Shown here piece after piece: positions 2,090 to 13,093 of a stretch of 64,000 bases of DNA. The notes beneath the pieces were generated by a model. The model was given only the letters and a program-made list of their open reading frames with translations. It ran no database searches and had not been told where the DNA came from. The position numbers and the translations under genes were made by a program. This stretch comes from an uncultured Gammaproteobacteria bacterium. Its GTDB lineage: Bacteria; Patescibacteriota; Microgenomatia; UBA12405. How positions within the stretch are numbered: the first letter of the stretch is position 1; every line of letters starts with the position of its first letter. Location: the NCBI GenBank assembly GCA_964503465.1, contig CAZCYZ010000001.1, positions 17,583 to 81,582 on the forward strand, written 5' to 3'.

Positions 2090-2677
2090 ATGAAATCCTC
2101 CTCCCAAAGTTACCTTTATTTAATTTTTGCCATCGTTCTTCTTACTATTTCCATTATCGGTGTCATCAGTCTTTATCGTCGTTCGTCTTCGCCATCAGTT
2201 GCCGCTCCAACTCCCACGTCCTCACCGCGTGGCTATCCTTCGCCCAGTTACGATTTTGAAACTGCTTCTGTTTCCCCCACCATTACCTCCGGTCTTTCCA
2301 TGGACGAAATTGAACCCACCCCCACCCACCAGCAATACACTGGCGATACTTTTCAGCTCAAATACCCTTCTTATCGAAAATTAACCATCGAAAATGAAAC
2401 CAGTGGCAAACGTTATGTTTTCTACTCCAATATTGGCAATATCACTCTTCATTCTGGTTCTGCCTGGTCCTGGACCCACCCCAGCCGTCAATTTAGCTCT
2501 ACTCTGCTTGTTGCCGATCAGCCAACTTTCCGCTATGACACTGCCACTCAAACTATCATCGATTTTCAACAAGGCGATCAACTGTTTACTATCCAATGCG
2601 TTCATAACGGTAAACCTACCCTCAAAACCGAATGTGACCAGTTTGTGGCTAGTTTTCAGTTCTCAAACAAAAACTGA
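2090..2677 (+). CDS. Hypothetical membrane-anchored protein with Pro/Ser/Thr-rich linker
   Basis: N-terminal hydrophobic helix (YLYLIFAIVLLTISIIGVISL) followed by a PT-rich low-complexity region. No recognisable catalytic motif. Confidence 0.4.
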   Translation: MKSSSQSYLYLIFAIVLLTISIIGVISLYRRSSSPSVAAPTPTSSPRGYPSPSYDFETASVSPTITSGLSMDEIEPTPTHQQYTGDTFQLKYPSYRKLTIENETSGKRYVFYSNIGNITLHSGSAWSWTHPSRQFSSTLLVADQPTFRYDTATQTIIDFQQGDQLFTIQCVHNGKPTLKTECDQFVASFQFSNKN

Positions 2678-3773
2678 TCTTTCTTGTCTGTTCGTCCACA
2701 TACTCAAAATTCACTGCTACGTATTTAACCTTCTTTTTTAACTGCGCCAGGTATTTCCTTCCCATATTTTCCGGCCATTCAATACACGCCACCGTCTTTT
2801 CTCCAAACTGTCCCAAAAAATTTATTTCTTCCAATTCTCTCTCGCTCGAGATTCGATACAAATCAAAATGCAAAAACTTCAACAATTCCCCTTGCCCTGT
2901 CAAGGGAAAGGGGTTAGGGGTTAGGGTTTTATATTCATTAAAAATCACAAAAGTCGGACTGACAATCTTCTCTTTTACTCCTAGCATTTTCCCCAGCCCT
3001 CTAGCAAACACCGTTTTACCGCACCCCAAGTCCCCACTCAACCCAAAAACTAACGGTTTAACTTGTGTCCTGTCAAGGGAAAGGTGGTACGAAGTACCAA
3101 AGGGTTTCTTTAATAAGAAACCCGCCACCTTTTCCGTCTCTCTTACCGACTTTGATATCAAGCTTTTACTATCCCCAGTTGTCAAATCTCCTCGTCTTAA
3201 CACCTCTATTTCTGGCTTGGTCGTATCAATTACCGTTGATGGTTTGTTTCTTGAAAGTTTGCCCACATCAACTATCAAGTCAATCATCCCTCTCTTCTTT
3301 TTTGACAAAGTTCTTAGAAAACTTTTTATCGAATAATGCGGTGTTCTACCTGATAGGTTAGCCGAAGTTGCCGTTATTGGCCCATCTAATACCCCAACCA
3401 AATCACTAATATATTTATTGTCCGGAATTCGTATCCCCAATGTTCCATTTTCTGCTTCTATTCCTTTGGTTACTCGGTGTTTTCCCTTCGATACTACCGT
3501 AAACGGACCAGGTAATAAATTCTTGTATATTTGTTCTGCACTTTCGGACAGCTCAACAAATTCTTGAGCCATCTTTTTATCCGCCACTGCTATCGATATC
3601 GCCTTTCCCGTCCACCTGTTTTTAAATGCCAACAGTTTATCAACTGCCAATTTATTAGTCGGGTCAACTGCCAATATATACACCGTGTCACTTGGGTACA
3701 CCACCAATCCACCGTCTTTAATCACCCTCATTGCCTGCTGAATATTTTCGTCCATTGTTTCCGATTTTACCAT
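2649..3773 (-). CDS. Fusion protein: L-threonylcarbamoyladenylate synthase TsaC/YrdC-Sua5 domain (N-terminal) plus TsaE/YjeE P-loop ATPase (C-terminal)
   Basis: N-terminal half has YrdC motifs (VVYPSDTVYILAVD, ATSANLSGRTP). C-terminal half has the TsaE Walker A GDLGCGKT, SPTFVIFNEY and HFDLYRI. It contains two in-frame copies of the dispersed repeat. Confidence 0.75.
   Translation of the reverse strand: MVKSETMDENIQQAMRVIKDGGLVVYPSDTVYILAVDPTNKLAVDKLLAFKNRWTGKAISIAVADKKMAQEFVELSESAEQIYKNLLPGPFTVVSKGKHRVTKGIEAENGTLGIRIPDNKYISDLVGVLDGPITATSANLSGRTPHYSIKSFLRTLSKKKRGMIDLIVDVGKLSRNKPSTVIDTTKPEIEVLRRGDLTTGDSKSLISKSVRETEKVAGFLLKKPFGTSYHLSLDRTQVKPLVFGLSGDLGCGKTVFARGLGKMLGVKEKIVSPTFVIFNEYKTLTPNPFPLTGQGELLKFLHFDLYRISSERELEEINFLGQFGEKTVACIEWPENMGRKYLAQLKKKVKYVAVNFEYVDEQTRKISFCLRTEN
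2888..2930. repeat. Dispersed repeat, copy 2, in-frame inside the TsaE domain
   Basis: Sequence ccccttgccctgtcaagggaaaggggttaggggttagggtttt. It encodes the extra peptide TLTPNPFPLTGQGEL between the conserved NEY and HFDLYRI motifs of TsaE. Confidence 0.65.
3068..3106. repeat. Dispersed repeat, copy 3, at the TsaC/TsaE domain junction
   Basis: Sequence tcctgtcaagggaaaggtggtacgaagtaccaaagggtt. It has the same cctgtcaagggaaagg core, in a different reading frame (encodes HLSLDRT), followed by a tggtac-gaa-gtacca hairpin. Confidence 0.55.
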
Positions 3774-3787
3774 GCTAAAATCATTTT

Positions 3788-4228
3788 ATGAGGCGGGTAC
3801 TTCTTGTTGTTTTAACTCTAATTCTCGGTCTTAACCTTTATTTCCATTTTTTTATTTCCGATCCAATTACCCGGGCCAAAATTCGCACCCTTTCCTTATC
3901 TCGTGGTGATCGCTACTACTACACTCTTCACCTCTGGTATCTTCTCACTGATATCGGTGATTGGGATTCAGCCTCCAAGCTCGAAATTTTTCTGGATCCA
4001 GCCGACACCGCTTATAATTTAGCCCAAAACTCTCCTTCCGCTCTCAAGAAACGTCTTAACAATCTCACTGCCAAGTCCGATAAAAGTGTCGAGGATTGGA
4101 TCGAATTGGCCCAAGTTCAAATTCGTCTAGGGAAAACTGTCCCCGCCATCAACTCACTTACCCAAGCCCAAACTCTCGATCCGATTCGTGACGACATCAG
4201 CAAAATGTTATCCGAGCTTCGTCGTTAA
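3788..4228 (+). CDS. Hypothetical protein with N-terminal transmembrane segment
   Basis: ORF with a hydrophobic N-terminus. No recognisable domain. Confidence 0.35.
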   Translation: MRRVLLVVLTLILGLNLYFHFFISDPITRAKIRTLSLSRGDRYYYTLHLWYLLTDIGDWDSASKLEIFLDPADTAYNLAQNSPSALKKRLNNLTAKSDKSVEDWIELAQVQIRLGKTVPAINSLTQAQTLDPIRDDISKMLSELRR

Positions 4229-5886: not shown

Positions 5887-7245
5887 ATGATTAATCTTTT
5901 TGGCATCACTATCGAGGCTCCATCGGGCAACGATGGTCAGTATTTTGACCATCTTTTAACTACTGTGGCCAAAAAAGATAACGAACGACAACTCTTAAAA
6001 CGCTTTCTTTTGACCAACTCTCGACTTGAAGAAATCACTGCCAGCGCTCAAGAATCAGCCAGCCAGCACTCTGATATCGACCACTTGAAACCCCAGGCCA
6101 TTGAATTTTATTTGTCGCAACTAAAACAAACCGGTCTTTATGAACAGGCGGTTCTTCGGCTTATTAGCCGCGACCACCTTTTTCGATCTGCCCCATATGC
6201 CGCCCAAATTCTTGCCGGAAAGTCTCCAGAATTACCAAATTATTACCCCAGTGATCACAAAAAAGCCGAAATTTTGGTTGTCGGTGCTCTAATTTCAGCC
6301 ATCAGTTTGCCGGAATGTCGCCAGTATCTAGCCCGTCATTTGGTTAAATCGCGGATCCAAGAAATTGCCAAGAATATGTTTTTTGCTATCAACCGTGGTC
6401 TTAACCCAGAACAAGTCACTACCTTCGTCTCAATTATTTACCAGTTGGAGAAAATTCAAGCCGCTCCAACCCTTGGCAATTTAAGAGAAGTTCTGCTTAA
6501 TGCTATTCTCTCCTCGTCTCCGGTGGAACTGGTCCACATCAAAAGTATTCGCTTCACCTATCCTGGCGGATCGAACTTAAGGGTGATCGAGGATACTGCC
6601 CCAGTAGAACAACTTACTGTCGACCAAGGTCATCGACTTTATCCTTCTGAAGAAGTCATTTTTAGCCGTTTGAATGCTGTTGCCTCTATTTTTCGAACGC
6701 ATGGTTTATCAGTTAATACCTCAATTATTGTTTCCGATCATGATCTTCAGTATTGTTTTCCTTCTCAGCAGGGGATTGTTCCGTCGTCAGATGTTTCTCT
6801 CGCCCACCAGTCTGTTAATCGATACATTAGTTACCTTCGACAACATCATCCGGAATGCCAAAACATTTATACCCTAACCGAATATCTCCAGTTGAGCCAT
6901 GCGGTTGATAGGTACGACCAACTATTTTCCATGCTCGTTTTTCAAGGTCATGGTGGGGGTGGTCAACACGTCTCTGAGAAAATATTAGAAATGCGGGTTA
7001 ACAGCCAATTTGAACACTATCGAGACATGTTTGGTCCAGGTTATACTCGAGAATTGGCCCGTTTTACCGCCATCAGACAAATTGCCAATGTTCTTGCCCT
7101 ATCGGCTGTCTTTGAAACATTTCCAACTATTCCAATCTTAGTTATTGATTCTCGCGGTTTTGAAGATCAACTCATTGGTGGCTATAACCCCAAATCAGTA
7201 GCCAAGTTCTTTACCAAACTCAAAGATCCGGTGGTTAAATGTTAA
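5887..7245 (+). CDS. Hypothetical protein (start uncertain; the annotated ORF starts at 5821)
   Basis: Long ORF lying between tRNA-Trp and trpS. No motif I can assign (contains GHGGGGQH). The start was chosen at the internal Met after the tRNA. Confidence 0.4.
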
Positions 7246-7261
7246 AATCAATTCAACCAAT

Positions 7262-8713
7262 ATGCCCGAACCAATAGTCGAAAGATATAATCAGGAGCTC
7301 ATTCAGCTTGGGATTGAGTTTAAAAACCTCGAACATCCTCCCATCAAGGAAGTCTTTGACTGTATGCGTTTTCTTGGTCTTCCTATTTCCGAAGGTTTTT
7401 CCACCTTAGTTATGAAGGCCGACAATCGTTATGTTGCTATCATTCGTCGCGACGATTGTCAGCTTAATATTAACCGAGCTTGCCAGGTTGTTGGTTGCAC
7501 CAAATTAACTCTTGCCTCGCCTGATGAGTTTGAAAAACTCACCCATCTTCCCTCTGGCGCCGCCCATATTCTGACTGGTCTACCCACTTATCTCGACCAA
7601 AAACTTTTTGACAAAGAATATTTAATTGGTGGCTCCGGTAGTCTTTCAATTAGTAACCGCTATCGCTCCGCCGACCTCAAAAAAATTCCCAACTCCCAAA
7701 TTGTCGACATTACCACCATCAAACAAAAGCTTCGTATTCTTACTGGTGACCGCCCTACCGGACCACTTCACTTGGGTCATTACGTTGGCACCCTTGCCAA
7801 CCGTGTTCGTCTTCAGGACCAATATGATTGTTTCTTTATCATGGCTGATCTCCACACCTTGACTACCGATTTTTCCAAAGCCAAAACTTCAACCATCAAC
7901 GATCGGGTTAGGGGATTGGTTCTCGACTATTTATCTGTCGGTATTGATCCTCGAAAATCCGTTATCTATCAGCAGTCTCGCGTCCCCGAAGTTACTTACT
8001 TATCAACTCTTTTTACTAATCTCATTACTGTCCCTCGAGCTCTACGTGTTCCTACCCTCAAAGATGTCATGCACGACCTTCACATCGAGCAGCCAAGTTT
8101 GGGACTTCTCAACTATCCAGTTTTACAGGCAGCTGACATTTTAATGGTCAAAGCCAGCCTTGTTCCAGTTGGCAAAGATCAGCAAAGTCATGTCGAAGTC
8201 ACTCGTGAGATCGCCCGTGATTTCAATAAAGCTTATGGTGAAGTTTTCCCTATCCCTGAAGCCATGATTGGTGATGTTGGCACCTTGGTTGGCACTGATG
8301 GCCAAGCCAAGATGAGTAAAAGTATTGGTAATTGTATTTATCTCTCTGACACCGCCGATACAGTTACCAAAAAAGTCATGAGCATGTATACCGACCCCAC
8401 CCGTATTCGTCCAACCGATCCTGGTCACGTCGAAGGCAATCCAGTTTTTATTTATCACGACGCTTTTAATCCAAACAAGGGGGAGGTGGCCGAACTCAAA
8501 AGTCGTTACCAAAAGGGGACTGTTGGTGATGTTGAGGTCAAGCAAAAACTTGCCATTGCCATCAATCAATTTCTAGATCCTATTCGTGTTCGTCGTGCCG
8601 AATACGAAAGCAAAACTGATCTTTTGGATCAGATCATTGATGATGGTTCTACTCGTGCTCACCTTGAAGCTCAAAAAACACTTGCAGAAGTTCTAAAGGC
8701 CATGGGGATTTAA
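7262..8713 (+). CDS. trpS: Tryptophan--tRNA ligase with N-terminal YbaK/ProX-like aminoacyl-tRNA deacylase domain
   Basis: C-terminal ~330 aa has [16 protein letters not shown] (HIGH-type), ADLHTLTT and KMSKS, matching the TrpRS pattern. N-terminal ~155 aa resembles the YbaK deacylase domain (FDCMRFLG...TLVMKAD...[10 protein letters not shown]...SGAAHIL...YLIGGSGS). Confidence 0.8.
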
Positions 8714-10682: not shown

Positions 10683-10740
10683 TGGGCATGCATGGAGTCG
10701 AACCATGGACCCCTCCGACGTCACGTCGGAGTGCTCTAAC
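10683..10740 (-). pseudogene. Partial tRNA (3' portion: palindromic anticodon-arm position, T-arm, acceptor 3' strand) of a paralog of the adjacent tRNA-Ile
   Basis: The reverse complement reads gagcac-TCCGACGTGACGTCGGA-ggggtc-catgg-ttcgact-ccatg-catgccc-a. No acceptor 5' strand or D-arm is present. The T-arm is identical to tRNA-Ile at 11006..11082. Confidence 0.5.
10705..10740. repeat. 36-bp perfect direct repeat, copy A (contains a 17-bp TCCGACGTCACGTCGGA near-palindrome)
   Basis: atggacccctccgacgtcacgtcggagtgctctaac is identical to 11092..11127. Confidence 0.8.
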
Positions 10741-11005
10741 TAACAAGTTTGCAATAACCATCACGGATTATTTTATCCAGTACAATTTTAGACTTTAATT
10801 TTTTCAGTCTAAATTCGACACTTCTTGCTGCCCGTAAACTTTGACACTTTTGACTAAACACTATCCTCCACGGAATTCCGCTTTTAGTGGCTCTTACTAA
10901 TCCAAGATTATGTTGTTTATTCAATCGTCTCTCTGGATCATTCGAGCTACCTACATAATATTTCCCAGTCAAACCACTCTTTAGGACATAAATATATCCC
11001 ACCAT
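10736..11005 (-). CDS. GIY-YIG nuclease family protein (UPF0213/YhbQ-like, ~89 aa)
   Basis: GYIYVLKSGLTGKYYVGSSNDPERRLNKQHN is a GIY-YIG motif with the conserved Arg and His-Asn. The start was set at the second Met so that it does not overlap the tRNA. The stop codon lies inside direct repeat copy A. Confidence 0.65.
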   Translation of the reverse strand: MVGYIYVLKSGLTGKYYVGSSNDPERRLNKQHNLGLVRATKSGIPWRIVFSQKCQSLRAARSVEFRLKKLKSKIVLDKIIRDGYCKLVS

Positions 11006-11082
11006 TGGTGGGTGTGCATGGATTCGAACCATGGACCCTCGACTTATAAGATCGATGCTCTAACCAACTGAGCTACACACCC
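11006..11082 (-). tRNA. tRNA-Ile (anticodon UAU) with encoded CCA
   Basis: Reverse complement GGGTGTG-TA-GCTC-AGTTGGTTA-GAGC-A-TCGAT-CTTATAA-GTCGA-GGGTC-CATGG-TTCGAAT-CCATG-CACACCC-A-CCA is a full cloverleaf. Confidence 0.7.
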
Positions 11083-11091
11083 AAATTTTAA

Positions 11092-11127
11092 ATGGACCCC
11101 TCCGACGTCACGTCGGAGTGCTCTAAC
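11092..11127. repeat. 36-bp perfect direct repeat, copy B
   Basis: Identical to 10705..10740. Confidence 0.8.
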
Positions 11128-11144
11128 CACCAAGCTACATGCCC
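11093..11144 (-). pseudogene. Partial tRNA (5' portion: acceptor 5' strand, D-arm, palindromic anticodon-arm position) with its own TATAAT promoter
   Basis: Reverse complement gggcatg-ta-gctt-ggtggtta-gagc-ac-TCCGACGTGACGTCGGA-ggggtccat, then diverges. Upstream (minus strand) is ttgatataattcc 13 nt before the tRNA 5' end. Confidence 0.5.
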
Positions 11145-11260
11145 AATACTATGGAATTATATCAATTGTATCCTTCTGGTAGTATAAGTCGGGTGACTTA
11201 ATCCAAGAGAACTTTTATCGCCGTAGGCGAAATATAAATAAAGCGGATAATCGGAACAAA

Positions 11261-11304
11261 GTGACGATATAAGATCGGTGCTCTAACCACCAAGCTACAT
11301 GCCC
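11261..11304 (-). pseudogene. Chimeric partial tRNA (same 5' acceptor/D-arm as 11093..11144 fused to an Ile-like cgatcttata anticodon region) with a duplicated promoter
   Basis: Reverse complement gggcatgtagcttggtggttagagcac-cgatcttatatcgtcac. The upstream flank ttggtataattcc duplicates the promoter-like flank of 11093..11144. Confidence 0.45.
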
Positions 11305-11325
11305 AAAATTAAGGAATTATACCAA

Positions 11326-11580
11326 TTATCGACCTACAATAGCTCTCAGCACTCGCTTTTCCGCTGTAATTAAATTTCCCCCTTCCAACTCCTGCATATC
11401 AGTTCTTACTGTCTGCCATGCTTCTGTCCTGGCTTCCCTCGCCCCCCAGAACTTTCTGGTTCGTTCTGCAGGTTGTCCTATCACTTTTCCATTCTTGTCA
11501 ACTCCTTTGGCGGCCCTGCTCAACTGTTCATTAACTGCCCGAAACTTAGACAGATCACTCTCTAACTTATCACCAGGCAT
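11326..11580 (-). CDS. Hypothetical protein
   Basis: 84-aa ORF between the tRNA fragments and tRNA(CAU). No recognisable motif. Confidence 0.3.
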   Translation of the reverse strand: MPGDKLESDLSKFRAVNEQLSRAAKGVDKNGKVIGQPAERTRKFWGAREARTEAWQTVRTDMQELEGGNLITAEKRVLRAIVGR

Positions 11581-12220: not shown

Positions 12221-13093
12221 ATGTTTATGCCTGACCTATCATTAGAAAATGCCCTTGGCCTCTTCAGTAATCAACTAGCCAAAAAGGGTAAATCCAACAA
12301 TACCATTGTAGCCTACAAAGGTGATATCAACCAGCTCGCTGCCTATCTCCGTAGCCAGAATATTACCACCATTGATGCTATCGCTCCCAGCCATCTTGAC
12401 AGCTTCAAAAAGCACCTCATGGACAATGGCTACACTGCCAAATCAGTCTCCCGCAAATTAAACTCCATCAAAAATTTCTTCTCTTTTCTTAAGTCTGAGG
12501 GGGTTATTGTCTCCGACCCTTCCAGTACCATCAAACACCCCAAGTACGAAAACGATCTCCCCAAAGTTCTCAAACCCATCGAATATCGCTCTCTTCGTGA
12601 CGCCTGTAGAAATGACCTCCGAGCCACTGCCATCGTCGAGCTTATGCTTCAGGCTGGTCTTCGGATCAAGGAAATCGAAAACCTCCGTCTCGAAGATGTC
12701 AAAGACACCGAAGTCAACATTACTGCCTACGAATCTCATCCTGCCCGCAACGTCCCCCTCAACAACTCTGCCAAATCATCCCTTAAGCGCTATCTCGACG
12801 AGGGCCGTTTTGATTCAAAAGCTAAAAACGTTTTCGTCACCAAAACTGGTCGTCGTCTTTTGGCTCGAAACATTCGTTCCCTTCTTAATCGCTATTTTGA
12901 CAAAGCCGATATTAAGGACATTAAAGTTAATGACCTTCGCAATACCTTTATCGTTTTCCAGCTCAAATCCGGCGTTCCCATTGATGTTGTCTCTCAAGTT
13001 GTTGGTCACAAGCGTATCAGCACCACCGAAAAATACCTCGAACTCATCGATTCCAAAGAGGAATCCAAGGGCATCAAACTAAAAGAGCTTTAA
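12221..13093 (+). CDS. Tyrosine site-specific recombinase (XerC/XerD or integrase family)
   Basis: N-terminal SAM-like core-binding region. C-terminal catalytic motifs LRATAIVELMLQAGLRIKE, NDLRNTF, VGHKRISTTEKYLEL (R..H-R-Y). Confidence 0.8.
   Translation: MFMPDLSLENALGLFSNQLAKKGKSNNTIVAYKGDINQLAAYLRSQNITTIDAIAPSHLDSFKKHLMDNGYTAKSVSRKLNSIKNFFSFLKSEGVIVSDPSSTIKHPKYENDLPKVLKPIEYRSLRDACRNDLRATAIVELMLQAGLRIKEIENLRLEDVKDTEVNITAYESHPARNVPLNNSAKSSLKRYLDEGRFDSKAKNVFVTKTGRRLLARNIRSLLNRYFDKADIKDIKVNDLRNTFIVFQLKSGVPIDVVSQVVGHKRISTTEKYLELIDSKEESKGIKLKEL

Follow-up and report, generated by a model that had tools for sequence, protein, structure and literature searches.

Organization of the locus

The window, by which we mean the whole 64,000-nt stretch of DNA analysed here and to whose positions all coordinates refer, contains on its minus strand a compact cassette: a complete tRNA-Ile(UAU) gene and the gene for an 89-aa GIY-YIG nuclease, enclosed by two truncated tRNA genes in which the anticodon arm has been replaced by a palindrome. 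The upstream fragment, X-up (11144-11092), is a 3'-truncated pseudo-tRNA that runs from the acceptor 5' strand, GGGCATG, through the D arm into the palindrome CTCCGACGTGACGTCGGAG, and on through the variable loop to CCAT. X-down (10740-10683) is 5'-truncated; it starts in the D loop, GTTAGAGCA, contains the same palindrome, and continues through the variable loop and the T arm to the acceptor 3' strand, CATGCCC-A. Both fragments were delimited from the sequence and by blastn to the reconstructed tRNA. They have in common a direct repeat of 36 nt, the lower copy of which (10705-10740) is identical to 11092-11127; these two are the only matches in the window when up to 3 mismatches are allowed, the shuffles gave 0 of 100, and the similarity stretches to 43 nt with 2 mismatches (repeat D4). 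Each repeat holds the 19-nt palindrome CTCCGACGT-N-ACGTCGGAG at the place of the anticodon arm, the upper copy at 11100-11118 (inverted repeat I7) and the lower copy, with its CCGA...TCGG motif, at 10713-10731 (inverted repeat I6). The window has no further copy of the palindrome 17-mer beyond the two repeats.

A first reading, made from the sequence only, had pointed to the identical 36-mers with a palindrome at the anticodon-arm position, the lower copy continuing into a T arm and acceptor 3' strand and the upper into a D arm and acceptor 5' strand, and all of this is borne out. That reading was mistaken in taking the T arm of the split copy to be identical to that of tRNA-Ile, as one loop base differs (repeat D5, 90%).

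The insert between the 36-bp repeats measures 0.35 kb and holds the tRNA gene and the GIY-YIG gene only, the cassette amounting to about 0.39 kb per repeat period. A linker, TTAAAATTT (11091-11083), separates X-up from the tRNA-Ile(UAU) gene (11082-11006), which is complete, encodes its CCA, and has the acceptor stem GGGTGTG/CACACCC. It is the one intact copy at the locus, as had been claimed: ARAGORN and Rfam (tRNA, 74.2 bits) score it alone as a tRNA, and neither program calls X-up, X-down, or a third, partial copy further upstream. Ahead of the enclosed tRNA, both in the window and in six of the loci used for comparison, which are designated by L numbers (L004, L007, L010, L089, L093 and L094), stands the linker TTAAAAATTT or a one-base variant of it, and the tRNA-Ile(UAU) gene at 11006-11082 is probably cassette-borne.

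Two peculiarities of this tRNA gene may be mentioned here. Its anticodon stem is TCGAT/GTCGA, as against CCGAT/GTCGG in nearly all relatives and CTGAT/GTCAG in L012 and L124, and the paired change abolishes the CCGA...TCGG motif in the working gene. Also, its encoded CCA is shared with neither the neighbouring tRNA-Met nor X-down.

An extended -10-like element recognized in the sequence, TTGATATAAT (11165-11156), lies 11 nt upstream of X-up. A promoter had been claimed at this place. The same extended -10 motif, TTGNTATAAT, is also found upstream of tRNA genes in relatives, which speaks for the claim, but the match is to an extended -10 only, and a consensus promoter scan, which needs a -35, flagged neither this element nor the other one in the window. 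We infer that TTGATATAAT is the likely promoter for X-up, tRNA-Ile, the nuclease gene and X-down as a single transcript.

The nuclease gene and its product

The nuclease open reading frame (ORF; 11005-10736, 89 aa plus a TAG stop) is fitted tightly between tRNA sequences. Its ATG immediately follows the CCA of tRNA-Ile, and its stop, at 10738-10736 inside the repeat, is the TAG that the D-loop remnant GTTAGAGC contains. What stands ahead of the ORF is the tRNA, with no Shine-Dalgarno sequence. The database gene call is 98 aa long, with a start within the tRNA, and relatives conserve the 89-aa form. As a separate observation, the 3' end of the tRNA and the first nuclease codons (10998-11012) form a 6-bp hairpin, CCCACC-AAT-GGTGGG, with the ATG partly in the loop. 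An AT-rich run comes after it, the structure is terminator-like in a scan, and it is not conserved among relatives. This hairpin might limit translation or read-through.

The assignment of the product to the GIY-YIG nucleases, with a stop codon in the repeat, proved correct: residues 3-73 match Pfam PF01541 with E=3.4e-12 and 46.9 bits (cut-off 22.6). The catalytic residues Y6, Y17, G19, R27, H32 and E64 are invariant in a four-sequence alignment and are retained in 14 Ile-linked proteins. The nearest solved structure is that of the UPF0213 protein BH0048, at a weak E=3.5e-4, followed by SLX1 and I-TevI at similarly weak scores. The protein reaches no NCBIfam family threshold (TIGR01453, 16 bits versus a cut-off of 56) and has no match in PHROGs; a defence library returned a weak, generic 'homing endonuclease' match. 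A word-indexed protein search gave four matches, the closest of these in L001, and the gene-position index contains the protein in neither its 89-aa nor its 98-aa form. An exhaustive HMMER search found about 2,000 clusters (50% identity) at E<=1e-3 and 118 at E<=1e-10. Many clusters of the family have N-terminal extensions of 20-60 residues, which may be due to gene callers running upstream into tRNA sequence, as in the window. Among the Ile-linked ORFs the pairwise dN/dS is 0.04-0.25 (at unsaturated synonymous sites, leaving out L092, which has an indel), and the nuclease protein is therefore kept functional.

Occupied and empty sites in Shapirobacteria

Judged by its genes, the window is a segment of a Candidatus Shapirobacteria (Microgenomates, Candidate Phyla Radiation, CPR) chromosome. 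The genes are cellular, including those for TrpRS, ribosomal protein L25, a Sua5-TsaE fusion, a polyprenyl synthase, DivIC and a Xer-like recombinase, and the catalytic part of TrpRS is about 80% identical to that of many Candidatus Shapirobacteria assemblies. In those assemblies a syntenic block runs from TrpRS to tRNA-Ile(UAU) and tRNA-Met, and on to a tRNA-Met, DivIC, Xer and HerA. The module, in the order 5' pseudo-tRNA with palindrome, tRNA-Ile, GIY-YIG gene, 3' pseudo-tRNA with palindrome, occupies this syntenic site in more than 15 independent assemblies. A tRNA-Ile(UAU) followed 0-6 nt later by the GIY-YIG ORF, and then by X-down, is found in L003, L004, L010, L082-L092, L094 and L124/L125. 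Of these, L082-L092 and L094 were drawn from a context-blind metagenome scan, and several of the metagenome contigs are placed at the same site because TrpRS adjoins the locus there. In 13 of 15 distinct loci the nuclease stop is the TAG at the D-loop remnant, the exceptions being L088 and L092.

X-up varies among relatives. From none (L089, L090) to at least two copies (L087, L004) lie upstream of the tRNA; full-length equivalents, which ARAGORN calls as odd tRNAs, are present in L003, L014, L082, L083, L087 and L088; and X-up in relatives usually retains a decayed T arm of its own. The clean split in the window is thus a deletion derivative. For the same reason we rejected a simple single-crossover split of one gene into X-up and X-down.

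What does the site look like when the nuclease gene is absent? A plain tRNA-Met - tRNA-Ile pair, with neither nuclease gene nor remnant, is present in L002, L009, L011, L012, L013, L015, L016, L018, L021, L032 and L036. L014 has X-up alone, without the nuclease gene, and L007 has X-up, tRNA-Ile and X-down with CAAAAT in place of the ORF. Occupied, remnant and plain states are interleaved on a neighbour-joining tree of TrpRS. Rather than a fixed tRNA operon, then, plain, remnant-only and variable-copy sites are found at the same syntenic place, and the earlier suggestion that the duplications are footprints of repeated events agrees both with the variable copy numbers in relatives and with two nested events in the window, discussed below. 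The 26-nt 5' half of the split copy has no exact match among species-representative genomes.

Two explanations can be addressed with these comparisons. The window derives from a metagenome-type assembly, in which short repeats may be mis-joined, and one might ask whether the arrangement is an assembly artefact or a chance repeat. This is barely conceivable, given the outcome of the shuffles and the recurrence of the same architecture, with different sequences, in the independent assemblies. The other explanation is a conventional integration. A gene for an XerC/D-like tyrosine recombinase (12221-13093) lies 1 kb off, and partial duplication of a tRNA gene is the usual scar of integration (PMC9897764). 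Could the cassette be an insertion made by this recombinase, with the repeats as attL and attR? We consider this highly improbable. The recombinase gene is kept at the same place, together with DivIC and HerA, beside plain, empty tRNA-Ile sites, and is therefore a housekeeping gene outside the element. It lies outside the repeats, which hold the tRNA and the nuclease gene only, and at the other tRNA-gene loci no integrase was found between the repeats within the sequence examined. The window also departs from the pattern of an intact attL tRNA with a 3' partial attR copy, as neither repeat-bearing copy is intact and the working tRNA is separate.

Discordant tRNA alleles

The tRNA-Ile(UAU) genes of Shapirobacteria have several acceptor-stem alleles, and these bear on the origin of the flanks. 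In the window the flanks, GGGCATG/CATGCCC, pair perfectly and represent the commonest allele, and the enclosed tRNA has GGGTGTG/CACACCC. In L007, L010 and L094 the flanks are GGGTATG/CATACCC and the enclosed tRNA GGATGCA/TGCATCC; in L082 and L085 the flanks are GGGCATG/CATGCCT and the enclosed tRNA GGGTGCA/TGCACCT. The enclosed and flanking alleles are thus discordant in six loci. The alleles GGATGCA and GGGTGTG are confined to loci with a nuclease gene or remnant, and the flank alleles are those of plain relatives. Because the flanks pair with each other but differ from the tRNA that they enclose, it appears that the resident tRNA-Ile was split and replaced by a cassette-borne copy. A local duplication would have left flanks and centre with one allele; the alleles seen agree with the arrival of a unit of tRNA and nuclease gene in place of the middle of the resident gene.

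The sequence-only reading had described a single split paralog of tRNA-Ile. Its notion of one split gene stands, as the flanks form a matched acceptor stem, but X-up and X-down are best seen as remnants of the former resident tRNA-Ile(UAU) gene rather than of a separate paralog. The allele discordance agrees with co-conversion of flank markers, an event that we infer. L124/L125 are a further variation: tRNA-Met gave rise to the left remnant and tRNA-Ile to the right, both remnants having the palindrome CTCCGACGT-A/T-ACGTCGGAG, and a functional tRNA-Met, a tRNA-Ile and the nuclease gene lie between the two.

One might propose instead that nothing here is mobile: a useful host nuclease, acting for example in DNA repair or RNA metabolism, would be expressed from a tRNA operon, and the flanks would be tandem duplications of local origin that have decayed and that ordinary recombination removes and restores. 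Purifying selection and the stable syntenic position in Shapirobacteria are in keeping with such a gene, as are the wide occurrence of minimal GIY-YIG proteins as single-copy bacterial genes (PMC1564403) and the L001 homologue, which has a tRNA-free neighbourhood in an operon with an exonuclease III-like gene. It would not lead one to expect, however, that flanks and enclosed tRNA differ in allele at six loci, nor the patchy distribution on the host tree. Further, members of the family lie at seven or more additional tRNA species, where a partial copy of the local tRNA mostly accompanies them, and the palindrome is common to different tRNA targets and hosts. We regard a non-mobile host gene as unlikely.

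The CCGA...TCGG palindrome

The palindrome is a property of the nuclease loci at large. When hairpins are counted as perfect, GC-containing inverted repeats with a stem of at least 7 and a loop of at most 6, their density is 3.75/kb within 250 bp of 31 nuclease ORFs versus 0.30/kb elsewhere in the loci (12x). Nearly all hairpins near the ORFs begin (C/G/T)(C/T)CCGA(C/T/A), and CCGA-N(0-12)-TCGG, enriched 17-fold, is present in 28 of the 31 loci. Copies within a genome have the same stem, though the central base or two may vary (L004, L088, L094), and between genomes the palindromes vary by paired changes (CTCCGACG, GTCCGATA, GTCCGAA, TCCCGAC). Of the 91 outer pairs in 13 distinct X arms, 89 are Watson-Crick and G-T pairs are absent; the functional tRNA-Ile anticodon stems all have a T-G pair. 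In a computed fold the window arm as single-stranded DNA has -11.5 kcal/mol, versus -4 to -5 for natural Ile anticodon arms. Pseudo-copies of the tRNAs for Met, Asn, Ala, Asp and Pro contain the palindrome too, and similar hairpins occur in the D loops (L010, L017, L025, L005, L085) and T loops (L082, L085) of remnants. The pattern fits a symmetric site in DNA, or an extrudable hairpin, better than it fits an RNA stem, and the likeliest role of the palindrome is that of a site in DNA for the nuclease, serving binding, cleavage or self-protection.

Is the palindrome a relic of the tRNA-Ile anticodon stem? Since remnants derived from tRNA-Met and tRNA-Ile share it in L124/L125, it is a boundary feature of the cassette and no such relic. 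An origin as a remodelled tRNA-Ile anticodon stem, or as a repair footprint, was rejected on account of the same palindrome in the tRNA-Met remnant; the related palindromes in Ala, Asp, Asn and Pro remnants also contradict an Ile-stem origin. We further rejected a REP/RAYT or IS200/IS605-type hairpin element, as the GIY-YIG nuclease is the only protein and there is no HUH (Y1) transposase.

In another model the repeats are the ends of an element. The nuclease, behaving as a structure-specific enzyme, would nick the extruded palindrome, and a unit of about 390 bp, made up of the repeat core, tRNA-Ile and the nuclease gene, would leave or enter as a mini-circle or by staggered cuts, the palindrome being duplicated like a long target-site duplication. 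In line with this model are the identical 36-bp repeats, the repeats of some 30-35 bp that share this palindrome and bound the unit on either side in L003, L083 and L124, the perfection of the palindromes in DNA and the stability of their hairpins, the presence of the structure-specific nuclease SLX1 among the closest solved relatives, and the full-length, palindrome-bearing pseudo-tRNA without a nuclease gene in L014. L089 and L090, however, carry the nuclease gene and X-down with no upstream repeat, plain tRNA-Ile sites have no palindrome that could serve as the target, and neither a circular junction nor a solo-repeat site with matching flanks was seen in the loci examined. GIY-YIG domains are not known to have transposase or recombinase chemistry, which also counts against this model. 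We find it quite unlikely.

A role in RNA is another way to account for the tRNA-like pieces, which might be signals for processing or stabilizing the nuclease mRNA, by tRNA punctuation or as hairpins that protect its ends, or an RNA partner or antidote of the nuclease; such a role could coexist with mobility. The start of the ORF 0-6 nt past the tRNA, with no Shine-Dalgarno sequence, and the inclusion of X-up in the same predicted transcript would suit it. So would the cloverleaf with a long third arm into which some X-up copies fold, and the compensatory changes in the D-loop and T-loop hairpin inserts. Yet the X arms are free of G-U pairs though the ancestral stem had one, so that symmetry in DNA fits better; X-down lacks the 5' acceptor strand required for RNase P recognition; and Rfam has no matching family. 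A role of this kind strikes us as distinctly improbable.

Other tRNA genes and tandem arrays

The design recurs at tRNA genes of many uncultured bacteria. Distant members of the family, 33-49% identical, are found at other tRNA genes: tRNA-Ile(GAU) in L093 and L114; tRNA-Asn(GUU) in L098, L100, L102, L103, L106, L109 and L110; tRNA-Ala(GGC) in L095; tRNA-Asp in L107; tRNA-His in L099; tRNA-Glu in L101; and tRNA-Pro/Thr in L097. Most of these loci have a partial copy of the local tRNA, in which a perfect hairpin replaces or adjoins the anticodon arm. The ORFs often stop at a conserved codon derived from the tRNA, be it the TAG of GTAGCTC, the TAG of GGTTAGAGC, or a TAA in the Asn anticodon loop. 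At the tRNA-Ile(GAU) locus L093 the hairpin is exactly that of the Ile(UAU) loci L004, L091 and L092, which suggests that the hairpin segment moves with the nuclease gene. Tandem arrays are common: units with the nuclease gene form them in L114, L105 and L125, and X-up is repeated in L004 and L087.

A second GIY-YIG subfamily, of typical UPF0213-like proteins (79-91 aa), lies in 5' fragments of tRNA-Ile and tRNA-Met in L005 and L025, and residence in tRNA genes is therefore not restricted to one GIY-YIG clade. In L005 (11850-12180) the UPF0213-like gene is inserted after a tRNA-Ile 5' fragment; in L025 (13100-13750) it occurs twice in tandem upstream of tRNA-Met, with the promoter and the tRNA 5' end duplicated. 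In a different instance, L108 and L109 encode identical nuclease proteins and their downstream DNAs are 96% identical, but the two diverge exactly at the ORF start (~2487), with tRNA-Asn directly upstream in L109 and unrelated sequence in L108. The divergence is either a rearrangement at the junction of tRNA and ORF or an assembly chimera.

The third tRNA-Ile copy and neighbouring features

Upstream of the cassette is a third copy of tRNA-Ile, which comprises positions 1-37 of the tRNA and ends with CTTATA in the anticodon loop (11304-11268; repeats D1 and D3, and blastn). It is preceded by an extended -10-like element of its own, TTGGTATAAT (11325-11316; repeat D1), so that the 5' half with a promoter-like element noticed earlier is real. 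The third copy and X-up have the same promoter-like element and the same unusual D loop (repeat D1, 92% over 50 nt). After anticodon-loop position 37 a tail of 102 nt (11267-11166) is joined to it, for which Rfam has no match. The same tail follows tRNA-Ile 5' halves in L017 (~6300-6420) and L008 (3300-3480), where it is succeeded by a promoter and an intact tRNA-Ile. In L006 (2400-2718) it is the 3' part of the tail that is fused to 3' halves of tRNA-Ile, as a tandem series of at least three 117-bp units. The conserved tail is about 70-100 nt long, with its junction at position 37/38 of the tRNA-Ile(UAU) anticodon loop. An inner hairpin shows compensatory changes (CGCC/GGCG, CACC/GGTG, CCGCT/AGCGG), and the terminus in the window, L017 and L008 is a fold-back palindrome, AAGTCG-C-CGACTT.

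The third copy belongs to a different type of insertion, which likewise recurs, and the tail could be a remnant of an insertion or of an intron-like element. As the tRNA downstream of the tail structure carries the nuclease cassette, the window records two events, one nested in the other and differing in kind. A group I intron or known ribozyme in the insert or tail was rejected: Rfam found no intron family at E<=1 between 9500 and 12500, only tRNAs, and the functional tRNA-Ile is uninterrupted.

The D loops of remnants in L010 (11965-12005), L017 (~6440-6490), L025 (~12790-12830) and L124 (~310-390) contain an inserted module of two hairpins. It consists of a hairpin of the CCGA...TCGG type and a second one, GTGGGG-ATAAA-CCCCAC or, with paired changes, GTAGGG...CCCTAC; the second hairpin alone is found upstream of tRNA-Met in L003 (~3770-3790). 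The module has the look of a small hairpin element that is either mobile or generated repeatedly.

The minus strand at 11326-11580, between tRNA-Met and the third tRNA-Ile copy, has an orphan ORF of 84 aa, a singleton cluster with no match in Pfam or the defence library. In most relatives the spacer between tRNA-Met and tRNA-Ile is 3-150 nt, and the ORF may therefore be inserted DNA or a spurious call. Two gene fusions lie further off. The window TrpRS (7262-8713) has an N-terminal YbaK-like tRNA_edit domain that is common only to L002 and L003 (74-78% identity) and missing from other Shapirobacteria TrpRS; it is a mosaic domain fusion. A 374-aa ORF (2649-3773) joins Sua5/YrdC to TsaE, both of which act in t6A tRNA modification.

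A probable selfish cassette in a tRNA gene

What process would split a tRNA gene and put another in its place? We think it reasonably probable that the locus is a homing-endonuclease-like selfish cassette, which spreads by recombination through conserved tRNA sequence. In outline, the nuclease would break or nick DNA within or beside a tRNA gene, and repair would copy the cassette in, the homology arms being provided by the D-arm and T-arm sequences conserved in the remnants. This would be homing by gene conversion, in which the tRNA is co-converted. Loss of the resident tRNA would be tolerated because the cassette supplies a replacement, and the host would from then on depend on the cassette tRNA. 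Later recombination among the tRNA-like repeats would account for tandem arrays and deletions, and for nested events of which the third copy is an example. The nuclease mRNA is probably leaderless or near-leaderless, starting at the processed 3' end of the tRNA, and would end at the TAG donated by the tRNA remnant. The first reading had proposed a nuclease-encoding selfish element with the anticodon-arm region of a tRNA gene as its insertion or att site; allele discordance and empty sites support the selfish element, but an integrase/att mechanism plays no part.

Several points weigh against a homing cassette. Cleavage, target site and mobility are all deduced from sequence. The catalytic domain is the only match in the nuclease, which has no C-terminal DNA-binding module of the NUMOD, helix-turn-helix or zinc-finger kind and in this is unlike SegB or I-TevI, and a scan of viral contigs found no relative of it. 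The L001 homologue has no tRNA nearby. Purifying selection, together with mostly one syntenic site, also fits a domesticated or useful gene that has been lost repeatedly. Any target within the tRNA persists in the enclosed functional tRNA, which leaves self-immunity unexplained, though the phage endonuclease SegB, considered below, shows that such a situation is tolerable. Simple homing also leaves the origin and retention of the palindrome unexplained. As to the comparisons, the loci come from metagenome assemblies, in which repeats are prone to mis-assembly; the TrpRS tree, of one protein and by neighbour joining, displays patchiness, not a count of events; and no near-identical pair of genomes with and without the cassette was found, the neighbouring proteins retrieved being singleton clusters at 90% identity.

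A bolder and more specific version can be put forward tentatively, and we consider it possible rather than probable: that these are a new class of ultra-compact (~0.4 kb) selfish cassettes, which destroy the resident tRNA gene and supply their own, and whose minimal Slx1/UPF0213-type nuclease drives them and reads the conserved CCGA...TCGG palindrome at the former anticodon arm.

Single-domain GIY-YIG proteins, common in bacteria generally, are very frequent in the ultra-small bacteria of the CPR, and one clade of them here behaves genomically like a selfish element. If the bolder version is right, a clade of the orphan single-domain GIY-YIG proteins of bacteria would receive its first concrete biological role, and the cassettes would rank with the smallest known self-encoded mobile units. 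Replacing an essential tRNA gene would offer a parasite a new route to indispensability. Should the nuclease read the palindrome or a motif of tRNA genes, it would be specific for sequence or structure despite its very small size, and might find practical use. The cassettes also account for odd 'tRNA' calls, with undetermined or suppressor anticodons, and for over-long gene calls in CPR annotation, and they indicate that tRNA loci in reduced genomes can act as recombination hot spots. The architecture of tRNA gene, nuclease gene and palindrome-marked tRNA remnants is clear and testable.

Relation to known systems

According to reports by Paquin, Laforest and Lang, GIY-YIG elements of Allomyces and other fungal mitochondria carry a replacement gene end and leave the displaced remnant downstream; GC-rich mobile double-hairpin elements are said to cluster at the junctions of such fungal elements. 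Those elements reside in protein-coding genes of an organelle, whereas the present ones have a whole tRNA, a bacterial chromosome and a conserved hairpin motif.

The UPF0213/YhbQ 'Slx1-like' proteins (PMC1564403; PDB 1zg2, 1ywl) resemble the nuclease in having about 90 aa and a catalytic domain only. No link of these proteins to tRNA genes or palindromes is reported, however, and the match, noted above, is weak. GIY-YIG restriction enzymes read short palindromes, Hpy188I recognizing TCNGA and Cfr42I/Eco29kI recognizing CCGCGG (PMC3045582, PMC2241918). They read their symmetric sites as dimers or tetramers, and the palindrome stems here contain TCCGA/TCGGA; unlike the present nuclease they are larger and have a partner methyltransferase, and we liken them to it by fold alone.

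Integrative elements in tRNA genes leave a complete and a partial tRNA as attL and attR (PMC9897764). These elements likewise keep the tRNA functional, and in them too foreign DNA lies between direct repeats that consist of tRNA sequence. The cassette differs from them in having no integrase between the repeats, an insert of 0.35 kb rather than kilobases, a working tRNA that is a separate, complete gene within the insert, and a palindrome instead of the anticodon arm. A survey of tRNA introns in Patescibacteria deals with group I introns, which are another kind of element, and does not mention such cassettes (PMC13011429). We found no description of a nuclease and tRNA cassette with palindrome-bearing tRNA remnants in the full-text literature, a search whose coverage leaves out most subscription journals.

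The closest analogue, and a precedent, is the phage enzyme SegB, a free-standing GIY-YIG homing endonuclease of the tRNA cluster of phages T4/T6 (PMC2330249, PMC13096335). SegB recognizes the T-loop motif GGTTCRANTCC and also cuts the tRNA genes of its own genome (PMC2330249). Because its target is a conserved motif of tRNA genes, SegB can colonize new tRNA genes. It drives a recombination-dependent tandem amplification of a 718-bp unit of tRNA-Tyr and segB (PMC13096335). There are differences: the phage protein has two domains and includes a DNA-binding part, as against 89 aa of catalytic domain encoded on a CPR chromosome, and neither palindrome-substituted pseudo-tRNA flanks nor replacement of a resident tRNA is reported for SegB in PMC2330249 and PMC13096335. 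What the two systems share is a GIY-YIG gene amid tRNA genes, variably present between relatives, the retention of sites in its own genome that it could cleave, and tandem units of tRNA and nuclease gene. The presence or absence of the gene at a homologous locus, which is a trait of the Seg type, is seen here at the syntenic loci of Shapirobacteria.

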